From assembly GCA_022710645.1 (NCBI GenBank), contig JAKLGL010000002.1, positions 212,176-276,175 on the forward strand: DNA of 64,000 bases, written 5' to 3'. The stretch is from Patescibacteria group bacterium (GTDB taxonomy: Bacteria; Patescibacteriota; Patescibacteriia; Magasanikbacterales; GWA2-37-8). Under the pieces are notes generated by a model that was not told where the DNA came from, ran no database searches, and worked only from the letters and a program-made list of their open reading frames with translations. Every line of letters begins with the position of its first letter. Positions within the stretch are counted from its first letter, which is position 1. This document shows, piece after piece, positions 1 through 54,672 of the stretch. The position numbers were made by a program, and so were the translations under genes.

Positions 1-3000
1 CACTGGGAGAAAAGGTACCTAAAAATTTAATTTTTTCCGCAGATTGCAAAATACTTCCTTTAACACTTAATTTTTCATTTTGAGCTTTGGTGCCGATTCC
101 AATTTTATTGAAATTATATAAATTACTTCCTGAGATATAAATATAATCATTAAGGGCTGTCGCAGACTGGAATTGCCCATCAGAAGATATTGCTATAGAT
201 GTCCAATTTTTTATTCCAGTGGCGGTATTGGTAGCCCAAGTATTACCGTGATCTATTGAGGAAAAAATATAGCCACTTTGTAGTTCAACCGCTGATTGAT
301 ATTTACCGTCAGAGGACATAGCCACATCAGACCATCTGGTTGATTTACCTTTCGCAGACCAGGTATTGCCATAATCAGAAGATATATAAATATAATCCCA
401 GTCAGTAGCTGAACCCACAACTGCGGTTTGATATTTACCATTGGCAGAAATACTTACAGCACTCCAAGCATTTTCTCCGGCTGAAGTGCTAGTAGTCCAA
501 GTAATACCATAATCGGAAGAAACACGGATAGGACCATCCATCTCAGCTAATATTTGATATTTACCATCAGAGGACACGGCTGAATCTGTTGACCCAAAGG
601 CATTAGACTCTGACCAACTACCAGAAATACCATAATTGAAAGATCTAACTATACTACCATTACAAGTAGCCAATTGATATTTACCATCAGAGGACATGGA
701 AATAGAACTGTGGCAACCTGCAAAAGCACCTCTTCCTATACTCCATGTTTTACCATAATCAGAAGATACACGAATTTGATTACCTAAACCTGTGATTGTT
801 TGATATTTACCATCAGAGGACATAGCTGTTTTGGTGTAACCCCAACCCGGTGTAGTTGTTGTCCAGCTATATCCATAATCCGAGGAACTATATAACAAAT
901 TATTGGATGAATTTCCAGCAATTTGATACTTACCGTCAGAGGATATAGATATTGAAGCCCAGTTTATTTTTTGACTATCCGCTTTAATATGATAATCCGA
1001 CCAAACAGAGCCCACATCTATCGCCCAATTGTTTTCAGATATTTTATTTTTTCCAAAATACAATCCTCCTCCTTGATCAAAAATTAATTGATCTCTCACT
1101 GATACTCCGTTACTTGCCACAAACAAAGCACTGGTAGCTTGCCAACTTGCTCCACCTTGATTTACAAGCATTTGTCCAGATATACCAGAGGGTATAATAG
1201 GAGAACCATTTATAAAATAATTCCCAGAAATATTGACATTTCCTCCATAAGAAATATCAACATAGGAGGTATAAATAGGAGAATAATTACTAATCACAGC
1301 TTGAAAATTTCCTTCCGCTGACACAACTATACTTCTCCAAGTATTATTTATAAAATTTTTATTAACCCAAGTATTGCCATAATCTGAGGAAAAATAAATA
1401 CTTCCCTGGTCCGCATCATAACCATTGGATATGGAAATTGCGGTTTGATATTTGCCGTTAGCAGAAATAGCCACATCTTGCCATTTTCTTGCACCAGCAG
1501 AAGTGCTAGTAGTCCATGTATTTCCATAGTCTGAAGAAATATAGATATAATTAGCATCAGCATTCCAATGATTACCCGAAACTACAGTTTGATATTTACC
1601 ATCAGATGATAGAGCAACTGACCTAAACTCTCCGTAATAGCTGCTAAATTTTTGAACAAAAGTATTACCATAATTAGAAGATATGTAAATGTAACCACTA
1701 TAGATAACTGTTTGGTACTTACCATCTGAAGAAATTCCTACTGCAGGATTAGTCCCGGCATAAATCGTGTTGTTCCTTTTCCAAGTATTACCATAATCAG
1801 AAGAGGTGTGGACAAAACCATTCATTGCCACGGCTGTTTGATATTTACCGTCAGCTGAAATGGAAACAGATGACCAATTACCGGAATTATCTGTGGTCTT
1901 GTCTGACCAAGTAGCGCCATAATCAGAAGAAATATATACATCACCATCTCCATCTCCGGCCACAGCAGTCTGATATTTTCCGTTTGAAGAAATAGAAATT
2001 CCTACCCAGCTCCTTTGATCAGAGGAAGTGCTAATAACCCAAGTATTACCATAATCCGAGGATATGTATATATAATCATTACCTTTAGCAAGACTTTGAT
2101 ATTTGCCATCAGATGATATGGCTAAATCTCTCCAAAAAGCATCAAAGGCTTTGGAAGAAGTGACGTTCCAAATAGTTTCCATGTCTGAATTCCACATATT
2201 TTCTGAAACTCTAGTGCGACCAAAATATATTCCACCTTCTTGATTGGATAATAATTGATTATCAAAAAGAGAACTCCCTTGCACAGATAATAAACGCCCT
2301 GGAGCGTTATCACCAATACCAACATTACCACCCAAAATAGCAAAAGTATTATTTTGTGATAATGTTTGTGCGGTAGTGGTGCTCAAATTTATACCGAATG
2401 AAGAGTCGCCAAATACCCCCATCCCCGAACCCATTGCATAAGAAGAAATACCGGTTGAAGTATTATTAACACCTCCTAAGACAATTGAATAATCTCCGGA
2501 AACTAAATTATCTTGACCACCCAATATTACTGAATTTACACCAGAAGCTATACTTCCATACCCACCCACAATTGTCGCCCCCATACCAGAAGCTATATTT
2601 GCTTGACCACCAATAATAGCTGTAAAATAATTTGTTGTTGTGTTGTACCATCCACCTAATATAATTGAATCTCGTCCAAAAGCTTCATTATCATATCCGC
2701 CAATTATAGCAGAACGAAGACCACTAGCTTCATTGCTAAAACCACCACCAATAAAAGAACTTTCTCCCGAAGTTATATTACTATCCCCCCCACCAACAAA
2801 AGAATAGTCTCCTGAAGCTCTGTTTTGCATACCAGCAGCGAAACTCCAATTACCTGCTGTATTACTAAACGCATTAAGCATTGAAATACTGTTTGTTGTG
2901 TTGTTGATAGTTATTCTCCGCGTTGCCTCCCAACCAGAAGAACCATAAAAAAGAGTTTGCCCGGTCATTCCAGATGGCAATGAAGCGCCGGAAATCCCAA

Positions 3001-6000
3001 GCGAACTTGTATTTGTCCAATAAGGCAAAGAAGTGACCGGATTAATCATCAAAACTTGATTTGCTGTTCCACCAATACCGCCAAATTTAAGTGTGCCGTT
3101 ATTGTTGATGTCTAAATCACCAGCTACGGTAAGCAAACTAGATGGCGAAGCTGTGCCAATACCGATTTTGCCATAAGTATAAGAATCGGCAGTGGAGGTA
3201 TAAATATATCCTCGATCTCCCCATTCTCTAGAAACCATGGTTTGATATTTGGCGTCAGCGGACATGGCTACAGATTTAAGCGTATTATAACTAACATAAT
3301 CAGTGGTCCAATTATCACCAAAATTGTTTGAAATATAAATATAATTTGAAGTGATAGCCGTGCGGTGTTTACCATCTGAAGACATGGTAATGTCCACTAG
3401 ACTAGAAACATTAGTGTTTACAGTCCATGTTTGACCATAATCAGTTGAGCTATATATATAACCAGAATCCACAGCAGCAGTTTGATATTTACCATCTGAT
3501 GACATAGCTAGCGATTTCCAGTTTAAATAACCGTAATCAGTTTTAGCAGTCCAGGTTTGTCCATAATCAGAAGATGTGTATAAATATTCCCCATTAACAG
3601 AGGCTGTCTGGTACTTACCATCTGACGATATGCTTACATCGCTCCAATTTCTCCATGTATCGTTGAGTTTAACATTCCATGTGCTACCGAAATCAGAGGA
3701 AATGTATACTACCACATTTTGCAAAACCAATGTTTGATATTTACCATCTGCAGAAATGGCTACGTAACCAGGACCGCCAAAACTATGTATATTTGACCAG
3801 TTTAGTCCATAATTTGAAGAAGTATAAAGATTACCTCCGTTGTTCATAGCAATCTGATATTTACCATCAGCAGACATGGCCACTGAATTGGCTAAATATC
3901 CTTGCCAAGTATAATTCCAAGTTTGTCCAAAATCTGTTGATCTAAATATATAACCATTTTGATTTGCTATTGTTTGGTATTTTCCGTCCTTGGACATGAC
4001 AACATCTTCCCATTGATCATAATATGAAAAATTTTGTTGCCATGATTGTCCAACGTTTGTTTCTTGGAAAGTGTCATTATAAAGCATCGGATCCCAAAGA
4101 GAACCACCTGATGAAATATCAGAAAGTTGATTTCCATTCCAAAACAATTCTCCACCTTGATTGTATAAAGCATTGGTTATATCTCCCGGCAAAGCATCAG
4201 CAATGGTTAAACCATAACCTGTTTGAATTTGATTGTTAAATACAGCATTGCCAGTGAACAAAGAAGATCCGTCAACTGTCAAAAGACTACCTGGAGTGGA
4301 AGTACCAATACCAACGTTACCTAATTCACTTACAGAAATACCACCTTGTGTATTACCGTTGGTATTAATATTTAAAAGACCATTATTACGAATCTTGAAA
4401 GATACAAAATTATTATCATCATAAACTAAACGCAAAGAGTCGGAACCAAAACTTTCTGGAGTTTCATTTAAAATTTCAACTAAAGTAGATGTTGGCATAA
4501 CCAAAGGTGGTCCGTCCATCTGTAAACTACCACCATCAGTTGCTTCGTTGAAAGTTGTAATATTCTCTGCGGTGATAGCGTAATAAGACCAACCTTCTCG
4601 GTCTGTATAGATATTTATCAAATAACCATCCTCATCATCTACATTATTCCAACTCCAACTAATCAAAGTATCATCACTTGGTGTGGTTGTGGTTTGTCCA
4701 AATGGCAAATAATAAACAGGGTCGGAATAAACAATCTCACCGCCAACTTCACGATAAGAATAAACCCGGGCATTTCTTTGTGTCCCTGAAGGAAATCCAT
4801 TTCCACCTCCACTCACCCATTCAACAAAATCTAAATTTGAAGGTGTGCCAAATGTTCTAAATTCAGGCAAAGAATTAAATTCACTAAAAACAGTATTTGT
4901 TGTAAACGAATATAAAAACCAACCCATACCTTGGACATAGCCGTTATACAAATAACCATCAGCACCTTCAACTTCATCCCAACTCCAAACAGCCATATAG
5001 TCAGTATCTGGAGTTGAAGTGGTGTCAGGTGGAATAACATAATAAGTAGGATCAGAATAAATTCTACCATTAGCTGTATCTTTATAACTATAAATTCTAA
5101 CATTTCTTCCGGTTCCAGGCGGAATCATACCTCCCAAAAACGCAGACGCGTCTTCCCAACCTGTTAATTCAATATTTTGTGTGTTATTTACAGTAATGTT
5201 TTGAAAACTAGTGCTACTAGAATATACAGAATAGCTGTTATCCAAAATGCTTAATCTAGCTAAACTATTCAAATCCATTCCTATACCAACATTACCCAAA
5301 AGAGAAGTTCCTTGTTCAGATAAAGTAATAGTTCCTGTAGGGCTTTGGTTAACTGATAATTTTAAATTACCATTATTCAATACTTTGAAGGAAGAAAAAT
5401 TGTTGGTGTCATAAACAAACCGTAGCGAATCAATGCCGTAATCCATAATTCTATTGTTTGAGACATCTGGCGGACCATCATCGTTTATACTACCAGCCAT
5501 AAATTCAGCTAGTTCACTAACTGAATTTGCTGTAGTTGTACCATAATTATCCCAAACCATTCCATCCCCATCAAAATTTCCACCTATATTTAAAAGATAT
5601 CCGTCCACAGTGTCAGCAGAAGCTGTCCAACTCCAATCTATCAAACACCCTTGTTCTGCTGGGTCAGTTGTAGTTGTGATATTACTTGGAAGACCTAGAT
5701 AATTTTGAGAATAATATCTTGTCCCTAATATGTCTTTATAAGAATATATTCTAATATTTCTTTCTACAAAACCTGGCGGAAGCATCCTATAATAATCTTC
5801 TGAACAAACCCATTCATATTGTAAATCTGTTGGCGGACTAAAAGTTTCTGAAGTATAACTATCATCCGCAATAACCACTCTTGAATTATTATCGGTAGAT
5901 GTCCCAATCCCTACATTTCCATTAGCCAAAATACTTAATCGCTCATTTCCGCCACCACTGGCGCTATCAAAAATAGAAAATCTATCTTCAATTTGAGTCA

Positions 6001-7778
6001 AAGACCAAGTACTTGTTCCGAGGTTTATAATATTTGTCCAAACTTCATTCCAGCGAGCATCAGAAGCACCGAGACTATACAAACTCACGTTCCCATCTCC
6101 GCCAGTCATATCTGGTAAAATATTTTGCATTGTTGAAGTGCCGGCTACAGACAAAAGAGTGGTTGGGTTGGTAGTGCCTATACCGACATTACCATTATTA
6201 TCTATCCTCATCCTTTCGTTTGATGCCAAAGTCCCACCAGTATGAAATTTGATAGCGTTTGAAGAATTATTTTCAGCTATACCAATCGCTAATGATTTAT
6301 TTGAAGCATACAGATAGGAATCATTGGCTCCCACAATAGTAAAAAGTGGATTATTATATCCAGAACTATTGATACCTAAATCAACATAATAAGAAGTATC
6401 GGTTCCATTATTGGCTGTGGCAATATAATCAGTAGAAGCATTTCCTCCGGAAGATAAATTTTGATTATTTATTTGTGAATAAGTATTTGTGTTTGCAAAA
6501 AATGAAGCAATCGAATTTGGTAAAGCATTTCCAGCGCCAACTTGCAAAAGACTACCGGGAGTAGTTGTGCCAATACCAACATTACCACCATTAAAATAAG
6601 AAGAGCCATTTGAATTTAAATAAATTTTAGTGGAATTTGTATTTTTAACTGAAATATTTCCAGCACGATTCGCACCTTGACTAAGAGTAACTATACTTTC
6701 TCCGTTATAACCTCTAATATCTAAGGCATTTGTATAATTGGTAGTAACACTTAAAGTTAATAAACTGTTAGGTGCAGTGGTTCCAATTCCAACAAATCCA
6801 GAACTACTAACAAAGATATTATTGGTAGCAGTCCAATCTGCACCATCGTAATAAAGCGTCTGACCAATAGAACCACTTGGTAAAGAACCACCGCCAACAA
6901 TCCCCAAAGTATCTGTTGCTACCCAAGTTGGAGAACCACTATTTAACTGCAAAATCATACCATCTGATGATGGTACAATAAAATCATAGGCAGAACCATT
7001 GGAATAAACCAAAGATCCATTACTTCCAAGAGTAGAAGTTCCTGTACCACCTAGAGAAGTTAGCAAAATTCCAGAAACTTCAGAAGTAGATGATAAATCA
7101 ATAGTACTAGTAGACCAAACACCCCCAGAAACTTTTACTATACCAGTCCAATCAGAAGAGTTTGCACCAACGCCACCATAAGCCGAACTTATAATATCAC
7201 CTTGCCAAGTACCTGAAGTTATTAAACCAAAAGTTGAATTTCCAACAACTGACAAAAATCCTCCAATATATTGATTGGTAGAAGTAATATAAGTAAATTG
7301 AGCGGTTGTTGCAGTTTCCGTACCAATAGCTCCCGGAGCAGCCCAAGTTTTTCCTTCTAATTGTGAAGATGTAAAAGCAGCCGGCACGGCACCGAGAATT
7401 TTTCTCGGACTCATGGTTTCCAAAGAAGAAGTTCCGATGCTAACTTCAAGATAAAGTGTTTGATTAAAATCAACACCCGTCAAACTGGAAACATCTCCAA
7501 GCATCACCGAGAATAAACCATTACGCAAATTTACCAAATACGGAGTTGATGTTCTTTCTTCCGACCAAACAGCTGTACCGCCTGTTTCTTGATTAAACAA
7601 TTCAAATTTCATCATGTAATCTCCATCGGAAACAGGTCTATTGTTTAAATCAAAAAGTTTTCCTTGATAATTGATTTCAGGATTAAAAGCAGCATTTGCG
7701 GTTGCAAAAAAAGACATGGCAAATACCAAAAAAATAGGTAAACCTAAAATTACATTTTTCCTCCAAAAATTGCGCATA
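1..7778 (-). CDS. Giant secreted surface protein (partial; C-terminus beyond window start). It has a signal peptide, tail-fibre-like GNVGIGTTxP beta-helix repeats, three Fn3-like repeats, YadA/Hep_Hag-like G-rich repeats, and more than 20 BNR/Asp-box SxDxGxTW repeats.
   Basis: Manual translation of the reverse strand from the ATG at 7776-7778 (MRNFWRKNVILGLPIFLVFAMSFFATANA...) gives an uninterrupted frame to position 1. Recurring ISSDGKYQT...SSDYGNTWT modules keep the frame throughout. The gene is not in the ORF track because its stop lies outside the window. Confidence 0.8.
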
Positions 7779-8053: not shown

Positions 8054-9088
8054 TTACTTCATTATCTTCCACTTCTCTTCTTCGGAGATTAGATAATAAG
8101 TGTCTGTTTTTTTATTCGCAGAAATTGTAATGCTATAAACTTTTGGAAATAACAAATCGTATTTTTCACTTTTCCAGTTATCTACCACGGAAATATTTGT
8201 TATTACCACATTTTGATCTTCTACGTTATTCGGCGCTAAAATAGTTTTATAAGCGGAAATAAATTTATTATTATCAATTTTATTTTGAACATCGTTTGGT
8301 AGATTTTTATAAATATCACCAAATTTTCCTCTGGCTTCGGCATCCATAACGGAAATCAATAAATTATACATGTCCGGAGAAAAATACCAAGATAATAATT
8401 GATCGTTTTGTTTTGATGACAAAGATAAAATAACAGCCTTCTTTAAATTTGGATGAGTCAGATAAATACCTTCTCCTGATTTAACTTTATTAAAAACAAA
8501 ATAACCGGAAGCCGAAGTTTTAACAACCGTATCTCCGGAACTCAAATCAGCTTTAACACCTTGTAAAGTCAAAGGATCTATTAATTGACCTGAAACTTTA
8601 TTCAAAATCAATTCCGGAGCATCTTTCACTATTTTAAAATATCCGAGTTTAAAATTAAAAAACAAACCGGCAAACAAAGCCGCACCCACCAATAACATAG
8701 CAATAATAACATTAATTCCGAAATATCTGGTTTGTCTCGGAAAACCCATAGCCTCAGCATCCGCTTTTCTGGCCAAACGAACCATATTAATTGCAGCGAC
8801 AGCTACCAATAAAACCAAAACCCAGATGGTAATAGTGGAAATCGCCGGAACTACATTTGTTACTCTGTCTATCAAACCGAAATTTTCACTGCTGGTCGGA
8901 GTTGTTTCTTGTTTTAAAATATAAATCAAAGCTTCGTCGGTATTTCCGTATTCATCCTCCACCATAATAACATGAGGTCCTTCGGACAAACTTTTATCAA
9001 TCATTAAATCCCAATTACCAGAAGAATCGCTTTGCAAATCAAAAGCGTAAGGTTGAGGATTGCTGTTGGTTGTGGTGTTTTCTTCCAT
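8054..9088 (-). CDS. Hypothetical membrane protein (two TM helices, ~190-aa C-terminal extracytoplasmic domain), last gene of the surface operon
   Basis: 344-aa ORF. Hydrophobic segments are ISTITIWVLVLLVAVAAI and NVIIAMLLVGAALFAGLFF. There is a 3-nt gap to the upstream gene. Confidence 0.6.
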   Translation of the reverse strand: MEENTTTNSNPQPYAFDLQSDSSGNWDLMIDKSLSEGPHVIMVEDEYGNTDEALIYILKQETTPTSSENFGLIDRVTNVVPAISTITIWVLVLLVAVAAINMVRLARKADAEAMGFPRQTRYFGINVIIAMLLVGAALFAGLFFNFKLGYFKIVKDAPELILNKVSGQLIDPLTLQGVKADLSSGDTVVKTSASGYFVFNKVKSGEGIYLTHPNLKKAVILSLSSKQNDQLLSWYFSPDMYNLLISVMDAEARGKFGDIYKNLPNDVQNKIDNNKFISAYKTILAPNNVEDQNVVITNISVVDNWKSEKYDLLFPKVYSITISANKKTDTYYLISEEEKWKIMK

Positions 9089-9093
9089 ATAAA

Positions 9094-11496
9094 TTAGTAA
9101 ATCACCGCTTTTATTTTACTTTTTGGTGTTGCGTTGCCGTTGACATAAACACGACTGCCGGTTTCGTTTTGCACATTGAGTATTTTCAAAAAAGTTTTTG
9201 GTTTGGCTGGAGTTGTAACCGGTTTTGGTTTTACCGGAACGGAAGGTTTTACCGTCGGTACCGGGCATTCTTTAACAATCTCACGCACTACTTCAAATTG
9301 CGGAGACATTAATAATTCCGGACCGTAAACTTCATTACCGCCGGCTTTAGTCATCGGACGAAAATAATAAACTTTGCCTTTTTCCAAATTATTTATCAAA
9401 ACCGCATGATAAACGGAATTATCCAATCTTTCTATAGTGCTATAAGAGTAACCCAAATTTGTGTTTGTTTGATTCACGCTTTCTACCGGAGAAGTTCCAT
9501 AAACCACTCGCGAAGATCCGGCTATTGAAGAATACCAAGTTATCAATACGGTAGAACCATCAACTTGCGTAGCAAACGCATTATTCGGACTTATGTTTAA
9601 CAATGTCGGCGAACTTCCACCAGAACTCCCTCCCCCGCAAGCACCGCCCCCGGTTCCCACACATTTAAGCAAAGAAGTGCTCCAGGAAGTGTTACTGCCG
9701 CAATAAGAAGATCCGACGCAAGATCCCCCGGTAGAAACAGAATAAACATATCTGCTCATCACATTACCGGAATTGTCTCGCGTATAAACTATAACCGGAA
9801 TAGATTCACCGGCAATAAAATCATTTTGCGGATCCAAAACAAAAGCATAATCGTTTATATTTCCGGTACGAGCTGTTGTGTCTCCGGCATAATTACCTCC
9901 GTTAAAATCGGAAGAAGTGGAGAAAGATATCGTTTTACCATTGATTGATAAACTTCCGGCACCACCTCCATTGGTATAATAATCTCCGTTTATATAAAAA
10001 ATCGTATTACTCAAATCTATCCCTGTTCCGGTATCTTTGAGATGCAAAGAAATCTTATCATTTAAAGCCACAGAAGCATCATTTAAAGGAGATAGATTAT
10101 CAACAAAAGGGCTATCTGTATCAGCTGTGGAAAAAGTATAGTTATCAGTGGTCATAATATTTCCGGCCAAATCAGCGCAATCATACACACTTACCGATAC
10201 AGTCTCATTTTGCGCAAAATCCGTAGTCGGATTTATCGTAAATCGATAACCATAATCTATAGCTGTTACTGTAACCGTTCCCAAACCTTGTTGAAAAGTA
10301 GTTAAAGCAAAACTCGGAGAAGAAACATTTATTCGGCAAGTGCCAGCATTAACTCCCGTACCGGAGATATTACCGGGATATGTTTTTTTATCATTTAAAT
10401 CAATGACGATATTCGTATTAACACTGTTACTACCACTGCTTCTAACCGGGCTTTCCGCCACCACACGAGGCGCGACAGTATCCGCTTCAGTAATGAAAGT
10501 CCATGTTTTACTATCCATAATGTTCGGACCATTGGTATCACCTAACTGATTTTGCGCAGATGAAGCATAATCACGATAATTATTTACCACTACAGTATAA
10601 GTGGTGTTATATTCCCAATTACGCATATCACCGGAAATTCCGGAAGGAGAGCTCGGATTAATCGTAACATTACAGAGATTTGTTCCCCAAACACCAGAAC
10701 ATCCATAACTAGCTGACCCTATTTGACTCACGGAATTAAAAGTAATATTACCGGTAGCAGTATCTACACCTGTGCCAACACCGCTATTATCTCCCTCTCC
10801 GTTTTTACTATCTCTCAAATCAAAATAATAATCGTCATCAATCGCCACCCCCGATCCTCCTGAAACAGGAGACGGGTTTAAAGCGTAAGGTTTTTTTGTA
10901 TCAGCCCATAGATGTAATGAAAAATCTTCAGCATCATTCATAATATCTTCGCCATTGTAAGAAATATTACTTTCCGTGGTACTTCCAAAAGAACCTGTAT
11001 TAATATTTAAAGTCGTCGGAGCACCGGTGCCATAATTAACAGCTGTCGGTTTAATCACGGTAAATTGAACCGAACCAAAAGTACCTATTCCCGAAGAATT
11101 CCCCGAAGTACGATATCCGGTTGAACGAGTACGCCAAATATTACCTGAAACAAAAACTGTATTTTGTCCGGACCATACCGGAAAATAAGTTCCTGTATTT
11201 AAATTTGAAGAAGTTACAACCGAAGCATCATGATCTATCCAAATATTAGCCGAATTGGTATGTTCAGAATTTATCTGCATGGTAGCGGTAAAAGTCTGAC
11301 CGACATAATAATAATTATAATCAGACGGATTCCCAGTTCCCCCGTCACCAGTATTATCCGCTCCAGTAAAAGGTGATGATAGAAGTTGAAACCAATTATT
11401 TCCCGAAGGGGTAGCAGAATAAACAAGATTTGCAAACAAAAAAATACCGGCCAACAAGAACAGTGAAAAAAGTGTTTTCTTTTCTTTAAAAACCAT
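9094..11496 (-). CDS. Large secreted surface protein (signal peptide, G/S/T/N-rich beta-type domains, Fn3/PAP-like module, Pro/Lys-rich linker, Cys cluster)
   Basis: 800-aa ORF. N-terminus is MVFKEKKTLFSLFLLAGIFLFANLVYSA. It has an Fn3-like TVLITWYSS...VYYFRPMT module and a C-terminal PVPTVKPSVPVKPKPVTTPAKPK segment. Confidence 0.65.
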   Translation of the reverse strand: MVFKEKKTLFSLFLLAGIFLFANLVYSATPSGNNWFQLLSSPFTGADNTGDGGTGNPSDYNYYYVGQTFTATMQINSEHTNSANIWIDHDASVVTSSNLNTGTYFPVWSGQNTVFVSGNIWRTRSTGYRTSGNSSGIGTFGSVQFTVIKPTAVNYGTGAPTTLNINTGSFGSTTESNISYNGEDIMNDAEDFSLHLWADTKKPYALNPSPVSGGSGVAIDDDYYFDLRDSKNGEGDNSGVGTGVDTATGNITFNSVSQIGSASYGCSGVWGTNLCNVTINPSSPSGISGDMRNWEYNTTYTVVVNNYRDYASSAQNQLGDTNGPNIMDSKTWTFITEADTVAPRVVAESPVRSSGSNSVNTNIVIDLNDKKTYPGNISGTGVNAGTCRINVSSPSFALTTFQQGLGTVTVTAIDYGYRFTINPTTDFAQNETVSVSVYDCADLAGNIMTTDNYTFSTADTDSPFVDNLSPLNDASVALNDKISLHLKDTGTGIDLSNTIFYINGDYYTNGGGAGSLSINGKTISFSTSSDFNGGNYAGDTTARTGNINDYAFVLDPQNDFIAGESIPVIVYTRDNSGNVMSRYVYSVSTGGSCVGSSYCGSNTSWSTSLLKCVGTGGGACGGGSSGGSSPTLLNISPNNAFATQVDGSTVLITWYSSIAGSSRVVYGTSPVESVNQTNTNLGYSYSTIERLDNSVYHAVLINNLEKGKVYYFRPMTKAGGNEVYGPELLMSPQFEVVREIVKECPVPTVKPSVPVKPKPVTTPAKPKTFLKILNVQNETGSRVYVNGNATPKSKIKAVIY

Positions 11497-11532: not shown

Positions 11533-12189
11533 TTATTCTCCTTGCATATCCAAATTTTTGAGCAACAAACTCAAATCTACGGAATTCACAACAACATCTT
11601 GATTCACGTTAGCTCGAATTCCGCGAGTAGTCAGATCGTTTGCATCCAAATCATTTAACATTATACTCAAATCAACAGAATTGATCTCATTATCTCCCAA
11701 AGTATTTGGATCAACTCCCAATCCGCTAATATCTCCAGCTAAAAGACGCACTGGGCCCGTAACACCGTCGGCATTATCGGTTGTCGTAAAATTAAAAATA
11801 TTTAAACCATCTGGTATGGAAATATTTGCCAATTTTTTGGATAAATGTTGATGAGTTTTGATATAGACATCAAAATTACCCTCTGGAAGCGTATCTATGA
11901 TAATCGGCGATAATCTTTCACCTGCCACTGTGGTAGTTAACAAAGAGTCCATTTTATAAGCAATATTTTCCGTGCCCGGATCTTTAAAATACAGATAGAA
12001 AGTCGTATCCCAATTTGTACTACTAGCCCCTACTCTGCCTTCGGGTATCGCCCATTTAACTTCAGCTCCGACCTGTCTAGTAACGGTTAGTTCCACAGGA
12101 AAGCTTACGGAAGCGGCGGAAACAAAACTTAAACCGACGAAGGCGGTTAGAAAAGTTAGAAAGATAAATTTTGAGAAAGAAAACAACAT
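11533..12189 (-). CDS. Secreted protein with a C-terminal dockerin-like Ca-binding repeat pair
   Basis: It has a signal peptide. LGDNEINSVDLSIMLNDL and VNQDVVVNSVDLSLLLKNL match the dockerin DxNxDGxVNxxDlxlLkkyl pattern. Confidence 0.55.
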   Translation of the reverse strand: MLFSFSKFIFLTFLTAFVGLSFVSAASVSFPVELTVTRQVGAEVKWAIPEGRVGASSTNWDTTFYLYFKDPGTENIAYKMDSLLTTTVAGERLSPIIIDTLPEGNFDVYIKTHQHLSKKLANISIPDGLNIFNFTTTDNADGVTGPVRLLAGDISGLGVDPNTLGDNEINSVDLSIMLNDLDANDLTTRGIRANVNQDVVVNSVDLSLLLKNLDMQGE

Positions 12190-12214: not shown

Positions 12215-12982
12215 TTAGTTCATATACGCCGTAATCGTAATCTGCGCTCGGTATTTTCCCGAAACTTGCAGATGTTGATTTCCACTTTCCGCTTGAAAAT
12301 GAATTGTAGTAGTGGTGCCTTCCGGATCATTATAGTTTTCTGATGAGGCAATTGTTTCTAAAGTTTGAGACAAAGGTCCCCAACAAGCTCTTTCCGTATC
12401 ATTACCGTCAACAACATTACAAACACCGCTATTGTCTCTGTATTTAGAAACAATATCTATTCCTTCCGGAGTAAAACCAAAAACCGAAGTAGTTGGCGCA
12501 ATATCCCAAACAAAATCAGGGGCGCTTCCTACCGGTATATAATCATCAAAATAATAGGTGGTTGTATTGATATGTTGCAGAGCCGGCGAGGTGCTGGCAT
12601 TGATTTGTAAAGTATAACCAAATTCATTAGTCGTCATCACATGGGCATAAGAAGTACCTGTAGCATTTCCTCCGGTTAAACCGGGAATAGATGGTTCAAG
12701 AGTGGTAGAACTTGGTGCTGATAAAGCTATAAAAGCTGTTTTCATCTGTTGATATCCGGCGTGAAGAATAAAATTTGTACTACTACTGTAACCGGTGGCA
12801 ATTTCACCCATACTGTCTTCTTCTTGAAAACTATCAGAATTACTATATCCTCCGCCAAAATTTATAGAATCCTGTTGCATCTTAAAATTTGTACTTGTCA
12901 TTACTTGTGCCAAAACTGGCGTCGAGAAGACGCCAGTTAAAATAGCCGTAATAATTAAGATTTTTATTCCCGCCCTGACCAT
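12215..12982 (-). CDS. Small secreted protein, paralog B (WxL-like candidate)
   Basis: It has a signal peptide and an IPGLTGGNATG motif. Its ...QITITAYMN C-terminus parallels the 14062..14628 product. Confidence 0.55.
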   Translation of the reverse strand: MVRAGIKILIITAILTGVFSTPVLAQVMTSTNFKMQQDSINFGGGYSNSDSFQEEDSMGEIATGYSSSTNFILHAGYQQMKTAFIALSAPSSTTLEPSIPGLTGGNATGTSYAHVMTTNEFGYTLQINASTSPALQHINTTTYYFDDYIPVGSAPDFVWDIAPTTSVFGFTPEGIDIVSKYRDNSGVCNVVDGNDTERACWGPLSQTLETIASSENYNDPEGTTTTIHFQAESGNQHLQVSGKYRAQITITAYMN

Positions 12983-12986
12983 ATCT

Positions 12987-13991
12987 TTATGCTTGAGGTT
13001 TTTGTCCGATATTTATATGAACGTTTTTCTTAATCCAAACGATAAGCCAGATCAACAAAACTATACCAAGTAATGTCGGAACTACAACTTTCCACGGCAT
13101 TACCCAAAAAGTAACAATTTGCCTATCGATAACATCTATTTCTTTATTGGCATTATCGGCAGTATAACCACGATTCAAAAAGATTTCCGCTTTATAACGT
13201 CCGAGCATAAATCCATGATCCCAAGATTTTTTCATAGATCTCTCGCTACCGGGTAAAACATAATACGGGTCTATTTTTACTCTATCAACAACCGTACCGT
13301 AAAGATTTTTTATCTCCACATAACCATAAGGATTTAAATAGACGCTTCCGTTGTTTTTATAAGTATAAAACAATTCCATCGGTCCTTTTTGATATAATTT
13401 TTTATCAGTTTTAAAAGCGGTCAAAGCACCGTCTTCTTTTACCGGACCGCTGACACGAACAAAATACAAAACAGCAATTCTGGATTTGACATCAACACCG
13501 CCTTTTATTAAAGTCGGATCTGTTTTTTGATCTTCTACGTCAGGCTGCGTAGTCACTATCACCGAACCATACAAACCACCGGGAACAGCATCTTTTGGGG
13601 CCGAAATCTGCACGGCAATGGTTGCTCTATCTCCACTTTGAAGAGTAAATTCCATGGCTTCCGGTTTAATATAGTCTTTCAAAGAATAAGGCCCTTTCAA
13701 AAGACCAAGGAGTTGAATTGGCGAATCAATTTCATTTTTACCTTGAAAATCTTCTAATTCCAATTTGAATTTGCGCGCTTGAGGAAATCTGTTGGTTACA
13801 TTAATAAATTTCATTACCGATTGCGATGGATCCAAAACAATTTCTTGTTTACCAGGACCAACCACAAAATCGTTGGCCAAATTTACATTTTCCAAATTTT
13901 CTATTTTAATAGCTTTAGCCGGAATGCTATTGCCAAATAAAAAAACCAAGGCGATTACTAAAAGTCCCCCTTTAAGAAATCGTGTATTCAT
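12987..13991 (-). CDS. Cell-surface protein with DUF916/DUF3324-like (CscA-like) architecture: signal peptide, ~300-aa beta-rich ectodomain, C-terminal TM anchor with a basic tail
   Basis: N-terminus is MNTRFLKGGLLVIALVFLFG. The C-terminal TM is VPTLLGIVLLIWLIVWIKKNVH. Confidence 0.5.
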   Translation of the reverse strand: MNTRFLKGGLLVIALVFLFGNSIPAKAIKIENLENVNLANDFVVGPGKQEIVLDPSQSVMKFINVTNRFPQARKFKLELEDFQGKNEIDSPIQLLGLLKGPYSLKDYIKPEAMEFTLQSGDRATIAVQISAPKDAVPGGLYGSVIVTTQPDVEDQKTDPTLIKGGVDVKSRIAVLYFVRVSGPVKEDGALTAFKTDKKLYQKGPMELFYTYKNNGSVYLNPYGYVEIKNLYGTVVDRVKIDPYYVLPGSERSMKKSWDHGFMLGRYKAEIFLNRGYTADNANKEIDVIDRQIVTFWVMPWKVVVPTLLGIVLLIWLIVWIKKNVHINIGQKPQA

Positions 13992-14061
13992 AGATTGATT
14001 AAATTAATTTAACTTTATAAGATGAACGAAAAATTCGTTCATCTTAAAAATAAACTAAAGA

Positions 14062-14628
14062 TTAGTTCATTTGAGCTGTGATGGTAACCAAAGAAGCATA
14101 TACTCCGGTTGGTTGTCCTTTTGAACTACCTACGAAAGCTCGAAAATTCATTGTGGAAGTTGTTCCAGCAAAAGAAGTTTCTGTACTACTTGCGGTAATA
14201 CTTTGAGGAGTACCCGGGGTAAATGCAGTCCAAGAACCTCCATCATAATTATAAGAGAATTCTGCAACATCTGCAGCATCTGTAGTGCCATTAGCAAAAG
14301 TATCTCCATTTCCATTGGTCAAAGTAGTAGCATCAGCTGTCATAGAAAAACCATCACTATTGTTGGTTCTTACAAGACATTCTTTTGCACCTGTAGCTGT
14401 ACCACCAGTCATACCAGGTATCGGTAATGAAAGAGTGGTAGTAGATAAATCACAGGTAAGTGTGATTTCAGCGGTAACTTCTACTTCTACCGGATATTGT
14501 AAGCTAATATCAGCTCCAATGGTACTGGTACTTACTGTATCAGCGCTAGCAAAGCCACCTTCAAAAAGCATAAAGCCATTGAACATAACTACTGCGCCGA
14601 TTAAAACATAAGACAAAATCTTTTTCAT
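14062..14628 (-). CDS. Small secreted protein, paralog A (WxL-like candidate)
   Basis: It has a signal peptide and an IPGMTGGTATG motif. Its C-terminus is VTITAQMN. Confidence 0.55.
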   Translation of the reverse strand: MKKILSYVLIGAVVMFNGFMLFEGGFASADTVSTSTIGADISLQYPVEVEVTAEITLTCDLSTTTLSLPIPGMTGGTATGAKECLVRTNNSDGFSMTADATTLTNGNGDTFANGTTDAADVAEFSYNYDGGSWTAFTPGTPQSITASSTETSFAGTTSTMNFRAFVGSSKGQPTGVYASLVTITAQMN

Positions 14629-24124: not shown

Positions 24125-26134
24125 TTATACTATCCTCACATCAACCAAACTAACTCCATTTTCATTACAAAACACCGGATTAAAATCCATTTCCTTAATT
24201 TCCGGATGATCTATCGCCAATTTGGATATGGCCAAAATCGTCTTTTTGAGAGCTTCAAAATTTATGGCTTTTTGTCCTCTGGCACCTTTCAAAATATTTA
24301 TACCTTTTATTTCTTGAATCAAATTTTCAACATCGTTTTCATCAAGCGGTGCAACTTTCATAGAAACATCTTTGAGAACTTCTACAAATATTCCACCCAA
24401 ACCAAAAACTATAGCCGGACCAAAAACCGCGTCGCGTTTCATACCGATTATCACTTCCCTACCTTTGACCATACTTTGTAATAACATCCCTTGAATTTTG
24501 ATATTTGCAAATTTTTCAGAAATATTTTTTGAAATTTCCTCCCAAGCTTTTTCAATATCTTCTACGGTTTGTAAATTTAATTTCAATCCTCCAACATCGC
24601 TTTTGTGTAAAACTTTATCTGTGATAGCCTTGAGTACAAACGGTCCGTTCATTTTTTCCATAGCAGAATTTATTTCATTTTTATCAGACAACAAAATTCC
24701 GGAAGTTGATTGTCCGACACTTTGCAATAATTTTTCCGTTTGCGCATAATTCATTTGATCAACAACAACTTCTTCTTTTTTCTTTTCTATGGCTATTTTA
24801 TTTTTAAAAGATAGATAATCAAATACTTTCACCAAATCTATAGGATCGGAAAAGTAAGCAATATTTTTTTGTCGGAAAATTTTCAAAGCCGAATCTATTT
24901 GCGCGCCTCCGATAAAAAGCGGTAGAACTGTTTTTTTCTTATTTATTTTGGCAATTATTTTTGCAGTTTCTTTGATTTGCGTCATCTTTTGCGGAGTTAG
25001 GATTACCGCCAACGCGTCTATATCTTTGACTTTGCTCAAAATTTTCAAAGCACTTTCATATCTATCACTCAACGCGTCACCGATAACATCCACCGGATTG
25101 CCGACTGCCGCGGTCGCAGGCAATACTTCACGCAAAGCGTCTTTTGTTTTTTCCGTCAAAGTTGCCAAATTTAAACTTTGTGAAAGCTCCAATAAATCCG
25201 CCAAGATGATAGACGGTCCCCCGCCATTGGTAATTATACCGATGTTTTCAAGCGGTTGGTAAATTCCAGCGTTAAACAATTTTAACAAATCAAACATTTC
25301 GGAAATCGTTTCTACGTTAATAACTTTGGCTTGCGCGCAAACAGCTTCAAATATTTTATTTTCCGAAGCGAGTGATCCGGTGTGCGACGCTACGGCTTGC
25401 GCTCCTCGCGCTGTTTTACCGGCTTTGAGCACTACCAAAGGTTTAACCGCAGTGATTTTTTTCGCCAATTCCAAAAATCTCTTTCCATCTGATACAGCTT
25501 CCAAATACATTACGATAGCTTTGGTTTTTTCATCATTTAAAAGATATTCCAGAAAATCGTTTTCCGTAAGTCCGGCTTCATTGCCGACAGAAATAAAATT
25601 GGCAAAACCGATATTTTCTTTTTTTGCAAAATCAAGCATAGAAGTCCCGACTGCGCCCGATTGTGAAATCACGGAAATGTTTCCAACTTTGGGAAGTTCG
25701 TCGCCAAAAGTGGCATTGAGATTATCGTGACAATCAAAAATACCCAAACAATTCGGACCAATGATTTTTATTCCGTATTTTTGCGCAATCTGCTTGATTT
25801 CATCTTCGCGTTTTTTTCCTTCTTCTCCGGTTTCTTTGTAACCGGCGGTAATAATAATACAATATGGAATTTTCTTTTCTCCACAAGAATTCAAAACCGA
25901 AGGTACTATTTCCGGTTTGACGGCAATCACCGCCAAATCAACTTCTTCTTTTATTTCCATTACCGCAGAAAAAACTTTTTCACCCAAAATTTCTTTTTCA
26001 CTTGGGTTAACCAAAAAAATTCGGCGTTTATTTTTGTCGGCCAACAAATTAAAACTCAAAGCATAACCAATTTTTTCTTTGTTGGCAGATGCACCGATAA
26101 CCACTACTCCTTTGGGGTTAAATAGGTTGTCCAT
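24125..26134 (-). CDS. Acetate--CoA ligase (ADP-forming), fused alpha/beta
   Basis: N-terminal CoA-binding motif GVVVIGASANKEKIGY. Succinyl-CoA-synthetase-like and ATP-grasp halves. Confidence 0.8.
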   Translation of the reverse strand: MDNLFNPKGVVVIGASANKEKIGYALSFNLLADKNKRRIFLVNPSEKEILGEKVFSAVMEIKEEVDLAVIAVKPEIVPSVLNSCGEKKIPYCIIITAGYKETGEEGKKREDEIKQIAQKYGIKIIGPNCLGIFDCHDNLNATFGDELPKVGNISVISQSGAVGTSMLDFAKKENIGFANFISVGNEAGLTENDFLEYLLNDEKTKAIVMYLEAVSDGKRFLELAKKITAVKPLVVLKAGKTARGAQAVASHTGSLASENKIFEAVCAQAKVINVETISEMFDLLKLFNAGIYQPLENIGIITNGGGPSIILADLLELSQSLNLATLTEKTKDALREVLPATAAVGNPVDVIGDALSDRYESALKILSKVKDIDALAVILTPQKMTQIKETAKIIAKINKKKTVLPLFIGGAQIDSALKIFRQKNIAYFSDPIDLVKVFDYLSFKNKIAIEKKKEEVVVDQMNYAQTEKLLQSVGQSTSGILLSDKNEINSAMEKMNGPFVLKAITDKVLHKSDVGGLKLNLQTVEDIEKAWEEISKNISEKFANIKIQGMLLQSMVKGREVIIGMKRDAVFGPAIVFGLGGIFVEVLKDVSMKVAPLDENDVENLIQEIKGINILKGARGQKAINFEALKKTILAISKLAIDHPEIKEMDFNPVFCNENGVSLVDVRIV

Positions 26135-26138
26135 AGTT

Positions 26139-26912: not shown

Positions 26913-26913
26913 A

Positions 26914-28614: not shown

Positions 28615-28618
28615 AAAC

Positions 28619-54669: not shown

Positions 54670-54672
54670 ACA

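Follow-up and report, generated by a model that had tools for sequence, protein, structure and literature searches.

A dockerin-like secreted protein of Patescibacteria seems to pair with a cohesin-fold stalk protein encoded beside it

In a 64,000-nucleotide stretch of a Patescibacteria genome (hereafter the window) we identified a small secreted protein that is built as an X-module plus dockerin dyad (XDoc). This architecture resembles type II, and an insertion in its first calcium loop further sets it apart from simple type I dockerins. Its gene lies next to that of an 800-residue protein whose N-terminal domain has a predicted cohesin fold, and we consider it probable that the XDoc protein docks on this domain within a dedicated surface assembly of one dockerin and one cohesin, consisting of a membrane anchor, a stalk and the XDoc protein as cap, and operating without enzymes. 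Given a fold like that of the XDoc plug by which cellulosomes are fastened to clostridial cells, and a neighbouring gene with a hidden cohesin, these bacteria seem to build a surface stalk on a plug-and-socket principle without cellulose-degrading enzymes. The features of the locus are collected in Table 1.

Results

An X-module and a dockerin-like module in a small exported protein

The XDoc protein has an exact counterpart (100% identity) among the hypothetical proteins of a Candidatus Magasanikbacteria MAG and belongs to a family of about 129 proteins. Its N-terminus, MLFSFSKFIFLTFLTAFVGLSFVSA with AS after the putative cleavage point, reads as a Sec signal peptide. The AF2 model (pLDDT 85.7, pTM 0.75) places the strands of the X-module at residues 40-46, 63-69, 76-79, 92-98, 104-112, 118-125 and 128-133, and residues 27-39 (SVSFPVELTVTRQ) lie outside this sandwich in the monomer model. 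The ten best PDB fold matches of the model (Foldseek) were all XDoc chains of type II complexes, among them 5m0y_B, 5g5d_B, 2b59_B, 4u3s_B, 4fl4, 5k39_B, 4wi0_B and 3kcp_A (E 2.7e-6 to 1.5e-4, target TM 0.59-0.70, identity 14-18%). X-module and dockerin aligned jointly over 182-192 columns with XDoc chains of 153-157 residues and with the longer 3kcp_A and 4fl4, the alignments taking in the two-helix F-hand fold of the dockerin. Solved X-modules are seven-stranded carboxypeptidase-D-like Ig modules (PMC5141474), and the model and its fold matches likewise show an Ig-like seven-stranded module directly N-terminal to the dockerin and packed on it. The other type II feature, a place at the C-terminus of a cohesin-bearing scaffoldin, is absent, as the 218-residue carrier has a signal peptide, an X-module and a dockerin only; in variants elsewhere in the family a PamT-type motif or a single further domain is present as well.

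A preliminary description had read two C-terminal segments, DNEINSVDLSIMLNDL (residues 166-181) and NQDVVVNSVDLSLLLKNL (residues 196-213), as type I calcium loops each followed by a helix. The second loop is indeed canonical, with N194, N196, D198, N202 and D205 (positions 1, 3, 5, 9 and 12 of a 12-residue Ca2+ loop) invariant in an alignment of 46 family members, and the AF2 model places helices at 171-179 and 203-211. The first loop, on the other hand, departs from the canonical 12-residue form, starting as G-D153-I-(S/N)-G, continuing with an insertion of fixed length (about nine residues) and ending as D166...N170..D173. In the same alignment G152-D153, G165-D166 and D173 are invariant and N170 is found in 45 of 46 sequences, 11 residues separate D153 from G165 in 45 of 46, and the spacing from D173 to N194 is exactly 20 residues in all 46. 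The pattern of ligand positions suggests that the module binds Ca2+.

The Pfam search proposed at the outset gave a divided answer: Dockerin_1 (PF00404) aligned with residues 165-213 over nearly its full length (profile positions 6-56 of 57, E 0.0072), but its 16.9 bits fall short of the gathering threshold of 22.9. The same profile reached E<=0.01 in 23 of the 46 aligned relatives (best 1.7e-5), a precomputed PF00404 match exists for two relatives, and the weak PDB profile matches of the module are mainly dockerins. Structure prediction, another of the proposed checks, favoured a dockerin. Taken with the signal peptide and the conserved ligand positions, these results bear out the initial description of a small secreted protein with a dockerin-like C-terminus.

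Table 1. Features of the XDoc locus in the window (positions in nucleotides of the window; residue numbers refer to the respective protein).
Feature	Position	Strand	Evidence
XDoc-like gene: signal peptide, X-module and dockerin-like module, 218 aa	11533..12189	-	ORF; family; AF2; PDB fold matches
Signal peptide, aa 1-26	12112..12189	-	Hydrophobic N-terminal helix 4-26 in model; cleavage-type motif (VSA, then A) from sequence
X-module-like 7-strand Ig-like beta-sandwich, aa 40-145	11755..12072	-	AF2 strands; joint XDoc alignment
Dockerin-like module, aa 146-218	11536..11754	-	Sub-threshold Pfam Dockerin_1; 23/46 members; weak PDB profile matches; restricted to family
Loop-helix segment 1, aa 152-181: G-D-I-S-G, ~9-residue insertion, D166-x3-N170-S-V-D173, helix 171-179	11647..11736	-	Family alignment; AF2
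Loop-helix segment 2, aa 192-214: canonical N194-x-N196-x-D198-x3-N202-S-V-D205 loop, helix 203-211	11548..11616	-	Family alignment; AF2
800-aa secreted stalk protein with cohesin-like domain at N-terminus, Ig-like (Big_5) and FN3-like domains, Pro-rich linker and, at C-terminus, half of putative split Ig	9094..11496	-	Pfam Big_5, Pur_ac_phosph_N
Cohesin-fold domain, aa 27-212 of 800-aa protein, proposed dockerin receptor	10861..11418	-	AF2; Foldseek
C-terminal strands of 800-aa protein, first part of putative split Ig domain	9097..9189	-	Conserved ending; L033 fusion
344-aa membrane protein: N-terminal remainder of putative split Ig, two TM helices, C-terminal extracellular-type domains; proposed stalk membrane anchor	8054..9088	-	Sequence; weak Big_13 match aa 16-52
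Giant BNR/sortilin-repeat protein (>2590 aa, runs off window), syntenic fourth member	2..7777	-	Pfam BNR_6, Sortilin-Vps10
255-aa PamT-like protein, directly upstream of XDoc gene	12215..12982	-	NCBIfam CPR_pilus_PamT E 4.9e-10
334-aa protein, signal peptide plus TM helix at C-terminus; candidate membrane-anchored chaperone resembling PamC/D or WxL-interacting proteins	12987..13991	-	Sequence; WxLIP_PGBD E 0.0011
188-aa pilin-like secreted protein	14062..14628	-	Sequence; weak SCPU match E 0.22

A cohesin fold in the adjacent 800-residue protein

As candidate partners of the dockerin, the preliminary description had named the neighbouring 800-residue or giant proteins. The former, which belongs to a family of at least 146 proteins, fits this role: its N-terminal domain (pLDDT 90.3, pTM 0.85) was modelled as the elongated jelly-roll beta-sandwich of cohesins, and 49 of its 50 PDB fold matches at E<=1e-3 were cohesins of types I, II and III or of non-cellulosomal origin (E 3.6e-6 to 9.5e-4, target TM 0.49-0.70 for single-module targets and lower for the 3l8q cohesin dyad). 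The model is closest to type I cohesins (target TM 0.63-0.70 vs 0.52-0.59 for type II). Type II cohesins are marked by a crowning alpha-helix and two beta-flaps; the only helix in the DSSP assignment of the model has three residues (31-33). The giant protein, by contrast, gave no cohesin or dockerin signal. The proposed cohesin HMM search was negative, as Pfam cohesin (PF00963) matched none of the window proteins and, at E<=10, none of the isolated domains of five orthologues; PDB profile searches with the N-terminal domain also returned no cohesin. Because the Pfam HMM yields no match, this cohesin is recognisable at the fold level only. Both the XDoc and the cohesin-fold modules are strongly conserved, and on the basis of the two models we propose that they contact each other.

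Linkage to cohesin and membrane-protein genes

The genes for the XDoc protein, the cohesin protein and a membrane protein with two TM helices form a unit in 29/29 informative species-representative loci. In all 29 the XDoc gene is adjoined by the cohesin and/or the membrane-protein gene, on the same strand in 24 (in 23 of them separated by -42 to +74 nt) and convergently in five; the cohesin gene itself adjoins in 28, and in the remaining one (L021) the contig stops after the membrane-protein gene. The XDoc and cohesin ORFs often overlap or lie 4 nt apart, and wherever the sequence extends far enough the cohesin gene is followed by the membrane-protein gene. At least 36 of the 67 XDoc family members on contigs of at least 4 kb share their contig with a member of the 800-residue family. 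Each locus yields one dockerin match and one cohesin match; at least one genome, JBDROX01, contains the trio twice. The record titles of all 29 loci carry a Patescibacteria or placeholder name, and those named include Magasanikbacteria, Uhrbacteria, Falkowbacteria and relatives. The N-terminus of the giant protein resembles giant ORFs downstream of the trio in four loci (L007, L015, L031 and L003).

The cohesin and membrane proteins are a single fused ORF in L016, L033 and L035, and the L033 fusion reads through the junction, the C-terminus of the 800-residue protein being continuous with the N-terminus of the 344-residue protein. The ending of the former, VYVNGNATPKSKIKAVIY directly before the stop codon, is kept in six genomes with variable spacers between stop and ATG. 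These arrangements are consistent with strand complementation between the two proteins, through which the cohesin would be anchored to the cell by the membrane protein.

The predicted folds, the conserved calcium-ligand positions, the gene linkage and the gene fusions are direct observations, from which we infer the following topology. The XDoc protein would leave the cell by Sec export, and its C-terminal dockerin-like module would engage the cohesin-fold domain that the 800-residue protein carries at its membrane-distal N-terminus, the Ig-like X-module stiffening the dockerin with its two Ca2+-type loop-helix segments, on which it is packed. The 800-residue protein would form a stalk of Ig and FN3 domains, and its last two beta-strands may combine with the N-terminus of the membrane protein into a complete Ig domain that holds the stalk to the cell. 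The XDoc protein would thereby serve as a docking handle for whatever sits N-terminally, probably the products of an upstream Pam-like donor-strand pilus cassette in the window and, in other lineages, a PamT-type motif or a pilin-like domain that is fused to the XDoc itself.

A Pam-like cassette upstream of the XDoc gene

This cassette comprises the genes for the 188-, 334- and 255-residue proteins. The PamT model covers the N-terminal half of the 255-residue protein with 39.2 bits, compared with an equivalog cutoff of 240, and matches 8/8 of its orthologues (E down to 7.5e-11), which indicates a relative of PamT and not an equivalog. WxLIP_PGBD was matched by four members of the scanned cassette orthologues (best 4.7e-5), all below the gathering score. 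The 188- and 255-residue proteins have a C-terminal ending in common (...ITITAxMN) and their family HMMs cross-match; CPR_Pam_pilin_C was matched by only one cassette orthologue (E 6.1e-4), and no equivalents of PamA, PamB, PamE or PamR were detected. In eight loci (the window, L001, L007, L008, L015, L016, L017 and L021) the cassette lies directly upstream of the XDoc gene and stops 4-17 nt before its ORF or overlaps it. About one third of XDoc homologues carry a PamT-type N-terminal motif instead: the PamT model matches the N-terminal extension of XDoc variants of about 260 residues, and in 365-residue variants the N-terminal domain is weakly like the 188-residue protein (E 0.001-0.009 in a six-sequence database). 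The cassette adjoined the XDoc gene in 6/12 short-form loci versus 0/16 loci with N-terminal extensions (one-sided Fisher p = 924/376740 = 0.0025, calculated by hand). As judged from these sequence relationships, the XDoc family appears to be linked to a Pam-like donor-strand pilus cassette.

An extension of the docking model, compatible with it, is that a Pam-like donor-strand-exchange pilus ends in the XDoc protein, whose free, beta-prone N-terminal strand (residues 27-39), or in other lineages a fused PamT-type motif, inserts into a pilin made by the cassette while the dockerin plugs the filament onto the cohesin-tipped stalk. The role of the XDoc protein would be like that proposed for the membrane-anchored PamR of Mycosynbacter, whose N-terminal strand is inserted in the Pam model (preprint 10.64898/2026.03.03.709456), with the dockerin replacing the TM helix. 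We regard this as possible but tentative. The tight spacing of cassette and XDoc ORF, the PamT matches on the 255-residue protein and on XDoc extensions, the 365-residue variants, the mutual exclusion of cassette adjacency and N-terminal fusion and the position of residues 27-39 outside the sandwich all argue for it; against it stand PamT scores far under the equivalog cutoff, the 22/30 species-representative loci with no adjoining cassette and the preprint itself, which reports Pam pilins for the most part from Saccharimonadia and Microgenomatia and makes no reference to dockerins.

Other readings of the dockerin-like module

Alternatively, the module could be a Ca2+-stabilised structural or ligand-binding unit directed at a glycan, a cell wall or a host surface, its linkage to the cohesin gene reflecting a shared surface-protein operon. 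The sub-threshold Pfam score and the atypical first loop would fit such a module, for many dockerin-like modules outside cellulosomes no partner is known (as stated in PMC9012536 where it cites Peer et al. 2009), and a dockerin-domain protein of a Saccharibacterium has been suggested to target host glycans (PMC10633639). We nevertheless judge this unlikely, on the basis that XDoc-type and cohesin-type folds, which are rare and known partners, lie side by side in 28/29 informative loci and that both modules are strongly conserved.

A chance resemblance, in which an Asn/Asp-rich protein of low GC content mimics EF-hand loops, would accord with the 36.5% GC of the genome and with a single-protein Pfam E-value of only 0.0072, but it is very improbable. 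Among the 37 window proteins (18,583 residues) the loop-plus-helix pattern ([DN]x[DN]x[DN]xxx[DN]xx[DE] and a hydrophobic helix start) has a single match, in the XDoc protein (shuffle mean 0.01), and a relaxed pattern (loop positions 5, 9 and 12 plus helix) has two, both in the XDoc protein and 32 residues apart (shuffle mean 0.12). The uniqueness of the pattern, the family-wide invariance of the ligand positions, the fixed spacings and the fold match essentially refute chance mimicry.

The dockerin subtype was found in only 60 proteins among 1.84 billion representatives, nearly all of 200-430 residues with the module at the C-terminus, and is confined to one small family; we therefore favour a dedicated one-to-one pair over a cellulosome. 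The "cellulosome-like" surface assembly first suggested thus survives in its docking principle only, because each locus pairs a single dockerin with a single cohesin and contains neither enzymes nor a multi-cohesin scaffoldin. Recruitment of several dockerin enzymes to cohesin scaffolds for polysaccharide degradation, which the mere presence of the two module types would fit, is the least probable reading, as Pfam scans of the window revealed no glycoside hydrolase, CBM or other CAZyme domain, every locus gave one dockerin and one cohesin, and across the 1.84 billion representatives the subtype is almost restricted to XDoc proteins.

Discussion

Known counterparts of the locus are the clostridial type II XDoc/cohesin anchoring pairs, for example the XDoc of Clostridium thermocellum ScaA/CipA or CipB with the cohesins of ScaF/SdbA or ScaC (2b59, 5m0y, 5g5d, 5k39) and the pair of A. 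cellulolyticus (4u3s). As in these, a secreted protein ends in a two-segment dockerin against which a seven-stranded Ig-like X-module is packed. In the anchoring scaffoldin SdbA the cohesin is N-terminal and the cell anchor C-terminal, and the 800-residue protein would match this layout, its anchor being putative. CipB offers a precedent for an XDoc on a non-scaffoldin protein, and the type II dockerin of A. cellulolyticus ScaA one for an insertion in the first Ca2+ loop, of four residues there (PMC5141474) as opposed to about nine here. Unlike the clostridial XDoc, to which identity is 14-18%, the carrier is only 218 residues long and lacks cohesins, CBM and enzymes. Its two segments are nearly identical (NSVDLS in both), more like those of dual-binding type I dockerins, and the cohesin model, with no crowning helix in DSSP, best fits type I cohesins. 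The host belongs to the Patescibacteria, and anchoring would involve a membrane protein and a split Ig domain in place of SLH repeats or sortase.

Cohesins and dockerins also serve purposes other than cellulose degradation, and then mostly occur singly, with no multi-cohesin scaffoldin involved (PMC9012536). Examples are the Archaeoglobus fulgidus cohesin 2xdh and the C. perfringens cohesin-like 2vo8 and 2jh2, all three among the fold matches of our cohesin model, and modules of ANME archaea. Whereas such modules are found by standard HMMs, the patescibacterial cohesin has no Pfam match, and the partners are here an obligately adjacent gene pair with a putative membrane anchor and a link to a pilus-type cassette.

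The Pam pilus of CPR bacteria, described in Ca. Mycosynbacter amalyticus (preprint 10.64898/2026.03.03.709456; NCBIfam NF058579 for PamT and NF058581 for Pam pilin), is characterised by a membrane-anchored PapD/FimC-like two-domain chaperone and by pilins that combine a nine-strand N-terminal domain with a linker donor strand and a C-terminal domain of truncated Ig type. Dockerins and cohesins do not figure in the preprint, and PamR, the anchor, relies on a TM helix. The cassette resembles this system in its PamT-related protein, in a secreted protein with a C-terminal TM helix at the position of the PamC/D chaperones and in a small pilin-like protein, as do the XDoc variants with a fused PamT motif. 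It differs in its low scores, in the missing PamA/B/E/R equivalents and in lineage, our record titles naming Magasanikbacteria, Uhrbacteria and Falkowbacteria and the Pam system being one of Saccharimonadia and Microgenomatia. Similarly, the WxL/Csc loci of Firmicutes combine a membrane-anchored DUF916 (WxLIP_PGBD) protein with small surface proteins. The 334-residue protein shares the layout of signal peptide, beta domains and C-terminal TM helix and matches WxLIP_PGBD weakly; unlike in those loci, neither a WxL domain nor an LPXTG protein turned up here.

How CPR/Patescibacteria build their surface and attach to hosts is largely obscure, most of their surface proteins being annotated as hypothetical, and the locus offers a concrete candidate for an XDoc-cohesin interaction that is kept in every informative genome with the family and linked to the Pam system of the June 2026 preprint. 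Since the cohesin escapes standard HMMs, cohesins are undercounted by domain-HMM surveys. It is conceivable, though for now speculative, that in this CPR branch a cohesin-dockerin plug joins Pam-type donor-strand pilus modules, in trans by the cassette or in cis by a PamT-type fusion, to the tip of a membrane-anchored Ig stalk held by a split Ig domain. If true, pili or adhesins would here be anchored on a principle that no described pilus system shows, and an ultrasmall bacterium would carry on its surface an assembly joined non-covalently in three ways (strand donation, cohesin-dockerin contact and split-domain complementation). The split Ig domain, whose two parts some genomes encode as one protein, would show how nature can tether a secreted protein by letting two chains complete a single domain. 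Few non-covalent protein contacts are known to be mechanically stronger than XDoc-cohesin pairs, and the presence of such a pair on the surface stalk of an episymbiont therefore suggests a load-bearing attachment device.

The XDoc protein resembles an X-module-dockerin dyad

The preliminary description had recognised two dockerin-like segments in the ORF of the XDoc (X-module-dockerin) gene, and we indeed found them at residues 166-181 and 196-213 of its product. A Candidatus Magasanikbacteria MAG (Patescibacteria/CPR) encodes an identical (100%) hypothetical protein, and the family to which the product belongs has ~129 clusters with exclusively CPR-type sources. Across the window proteins (18,583 residues), the loop-plus-helix pattern occurs in this ORF only (shuffle mean 0.01), and a relaxed version occurs at just two places 32 residues apart, again within this ORF. 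The suggested Pfam Dockerin_1 profile aligned along nearly its full length (residues 165-213 to profile positions 6-56 of 57; E 0.0072), at a score of 16.9 bits that lies under the 22.9-bit cutoff. Relatives share the signal, with 23 of the 46 aligned matching Dockerin_1 at E<=0.01 (best 1.7e-5). Similarly, dockerins made up five of the nine weak matches of the family profile to the PDB.

Segment 2 is a textbook loop, with N194, N196, D198, N202 and D205 (positions 1, 3, 5, 9 and 12) invariant across the 46 sequences of the family alignment and a helix (203-211, AF2 model) thereafter. Segment 1 is atypical: an invariant G-D and then I-(S/N)-G, as in the start of a normal dockerin loop, an insertion of fixed length (11 residues from D153 to G165 in 45 of 46), D166-x3-N170-S-V-D173 and a helix (171-179). 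The spacing from D173 to N194 is exactly 20 residues in all 46 sequences, as in the CelS dockerin of C. thermocellum, which is partly represented in the alignment from the family-profile PDB search. The module is internally symmetric, since N-S-V-D-L-S is kept in both segments. The loop-1 insertion has a precedent in the type II dockerin of A. cellulolyticus, whose first loop carries 4 inserted residues (PMC5141474).

In an AF2 model made from the family alignment (pLDDT 85.7, pTM 0.75), a signal-peptide helix precedes a sandwich of seven strands (aa 40-133), and the two-helix module follows. In a Foldseek search of the PDB, the model's ten best matches were all X-module-dockerin chains of type II cohesin-dockerin complexes (5m0y_B, 5g5d_B, 2b59_B, 4u3s_B, 4fl4 I/L/C, 5k39_B, 4wi0_B and 3kcp_A; E 2.7e-6 to 1.5e-4, 182-192 aligned columns), followed by unrelated Ig or transthyretin-like folds at E >= 2e-3; the target-normalised TM-score of the fold matches reached 0.70. 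In solved structures the X-module is a seven-stranded Ig module of the carboxypeptidase-D-like kind, which packs against the dockerin and lends it stability (PMC5141474). As the ten best matches are all of this kind, the model argues for describing the whole mature 218-aa protein as an X-module-dockerin dyad, so that of the type I dockerin initially placed in the last 60 aa the dockerin-like character is retained and the type and extent are revised.

Coordinates of features in the window and in homologous loci (L numbers) from other genomes
Feature	Sequence	Coordinates	Strand	Description
XDoc-like gene	window	11533-12189	-	ORF, 218 aa
Three-gene cassette	window	12215-14628	-	188-, 334- and 255-aa proteins, directly upstream of XDoc gene
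Split Ig domain halves	window	9097-9189 and 8909-9088	-	C-terminus of 800-aa and N-terminus of 344-aa protein
Giant protein	window	2-7777	-	>2590 aa; BNR/sortilin repeats
Fused ORF	L016	1845-5009
Fused ORF	L033	8374-11919
Fused ORF	L035	7511-10579
Split chaperone-like gene	L017	5081-6140	+	two overlapping ORFs, 279 and 95 aa
Fermentative module	window	24125-31383	-	ADP-forming acetyl-CoA synthetase-like, 2-oxoacid:ferredoxin oxidoreductase alpha + beta, [FeFe]-hydrogenase, NuoF-like subunit
TSP3-repeat pair	window	53524-55416	-	two adjacent small proteins
Second giant protein	window	55455-63839	-	2794 aa; TIG, Big_5, laminin-G, VWA; adjoins TSP3-repeat pair

A putative cohesin lies in the adjacent 800-aa protein

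The Pfam cohesin HMM, with which the preliminary description would have sought a partner, matched no sizeable window protein, both giant ORFs included, and the candidate was reached through synteny: directly downstream of XDoc, the invariant neighbours in relatives are an 800-870-aa and a 311-346-aa protein. In the 800-aa protein conservation is strong over the N-terminal ~190 aa, and residues 27-212, modelled with a 67-sequence alignment, gave an all-beta structure (pLDDT 90.3, pTM 0.85). Cohesins accounted for 49 of its 50 PDB fold matches at E<=1e-3, including type I (CaCohA2 6kgf, ScaC 4uyq, C. cellulolyticum 2vn5 and 1g1k), type II (3fnk, 5k39_A, 2b59_A, 2bm3), type III (2zf9) and non-cellulosomal cohesins (Archaeoglobus 2xdh; C. 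perfringens 2vo8 and 2jh2). The model thus supports the partner suspected in the neighbouring 800-aa protein and points to a cohesin detectable by fold only.

Dockerin and cohesin probably form a one-to-one pair

We retrieved 31 loci from species-representative genomes (titled as Magasanikbacteria, Uhrbacteria, Falkowbacteria, Vogelbacteria, Nomurabacteria and Patescibacteria/Parcubacteria-group MAGs, with several placeholders) and scored them with family HMMs. The cohesin protein and/or the membrane partner adjoins XDoc in all 29 loci with enough downstream sequence, on the same strand in 24 (23 of these with gaps of -42 to +74 nt) and convergently in five. At least 36 of 67 XDoc family members on contigs >=4 kb share their contig with a member of the 800-aa family. 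Each locus has one dockerin and one cohesin, and a search of 1.84 billion representatives with just the dockerin module matched only 60 proteins, nearly all 200-430 aa long with the module at the extreme C-terminus. A cellulosome that recruits enzymes is made very improbable by the single dockerin and cohesin per locus and by the near-confinement of the dockerin to 200-430-aa proteins. XDoc and cohesin are probably dedicated to each other, one to one; the earlier interpretation keeps its dockerin and cohesin partner and sheds the type I label, the HMM-visible cohesin and the cellulosome.

Outside the XDoc family, the module had weak matches only in P0281, P0288, P0289 and P0291, long proteins (453-2335 aa) with 4-9 repeated matching stretches each that may represent tandem arrays of dockerin-like or EF-hand-like repeats. 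Records of L007, L014, L015, L020, L023-L025, L028 and L037 are titled 'uncultured Gammaproteobacteria bacterium' despite the Patescibacteria-specific operon; these are probably placeholder or wrong names.

A split Ig domain may anchor the stalk

The C-terminal end of the 800-aa protein (...VYVNGNATPKSKIKAVIY, then stop) and the start of the next ORF, the 344-aa protein (...SDSSGNWDLMIDKSLSEGPHVIMVEDEYGN..., then two TM helices), read together, judging by sequence, as a single Big_13-type Ig domain. The split (a stop codon and an ATG, with a short spacer between them that varies in length and frame) was found in 6 of 6 genomes examined (window, L001, L003-L006), and in L016, L033 and L035 the counterparts are fused as a single ORF of 1023-1182 aa, that of L033 running uninterrupted across the junction. 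Strand complementation in the split domain would hold the stalk to the membrane protein, and the cohesin would therefore sit at the membrane-distal tip; the 344-aa two-TM protein has no signal peptide, despite the outside placement proposed for its N-terminal half-domain.

Downstream of the membrane-protein gene lies the BNR/sortilin giant protein. Giant ORFs also stand behind the trio (XDoc, 800-aa and 344-aa genes) in L003, L007, L009, L012, L014, L018, L019, L023, L028, L031 and L036, and the N-terminal part of the giant protein shows conservation (identity of 69% to L007 and of 39% to L015). The giant protein is a possible fourth component of the unit.

The upstream cassette suggests a possible link to Pam pili

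Within the cassette, the 255-aa protein matches NCBIfam 'CPR-type pilus protein PamT' in its N-terminal half (E 4.9e-10, far under the equivalog cutoff), as do 8 of 8 orthologues; the 334-aa protein has a signal peptide, a C-terminal TM helix and a weak WxLIP_PGBD match, and the 188-aa protein is pilin-like. These similarities point to a remote relationship of the cassette with the Pam pilus operon of CPR bacteria and, weakly, to one with the WxL-interacting proteins of Firmicutes. As set out in a June 2026 preprint (10.64898/2026.03.03.709456), Pam builds a pilus by donor-strand exchange; its chaperones are PapD-like and anchored in the membrane, and its anchor protein, PamR, is predicted to lodge an N-terminal strand in the last pilin. 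The preprint reports Pam pilins chiefly in other CPR classes and mentions neither dockerin nor cohesin.

The cassette stands upstream of XDoc in the window, L001, L007, L008, L015, L016, L017 and L021, always with XDoc in its short form. About a third of the XDoc family (39 of 120 among members listed) has an N-terminal extension that the PamT model matches (E 7.7e-7 to 1.7e-6), and STN[F/Y] repeats occur in 36 of these 39 members. The cassette was adjacent in 0 of 16 N-extension loci versus 6 of 12 short-form loci (one-sided Fisher p = 0.0025, calculated by hand from locus counts), and a domain in 365-aa XDoc variants is weakly similar to the 188-aa protein. We tentatively infer, with low confidence, that XDoc is the handle by which Pam-type modules dock, whether these come in trans or in cis. 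In L017 the 334-aa chaperone-like gene is broken, either as a frameshift/pseudogene or by assembly error.

Elsewhere in the window, two small proteins carry thrombospondin-type-3-like Ca2+-binding repeats (DxDxDGxxDxxE; TSP3_bac E 5.7e-11 for the 247-aa member) and, with the second giant protein, may form another Ca2+-dependent surface assembly. A fermentative energy module typical of CPR genomes occupies one gene string.

Comparison with known cohesin-dockerin systems

Cohesin/dockerin modules outside cellulosomes occur in all three domains of life (PMC9012536, citing Peer et al. 2009), and a dockerin-domain protein is noted as essential in a Saccharibacterium (PMC10633639); in the literature searched, no cohesin-dockerin pair was found described from CPR bacteria. 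As in clostridial XDoc/type II pairs, XDoc would be on the item to be anchored and the cohesin is N-terminal on a protein that would be anchored to the cell. By contrast, the carrier here is a 218-aa protein without cohesins, CBM or enzymes, the loop-1 insertion is longer, the dockerin is symmetric, the cohesin is closest to type I, the anchor would be a membrane protein plus split Ig, and the context is pilus-like. We consider it likely that XDoc and the cohesin form a functional surface pair. One Candidatus Magasanikbacteria assembly (JBDROX01) has two separate XDoc-cohesin loci, L027 and L029, a case in which the specificity of pairing among the paralogues comes into question.
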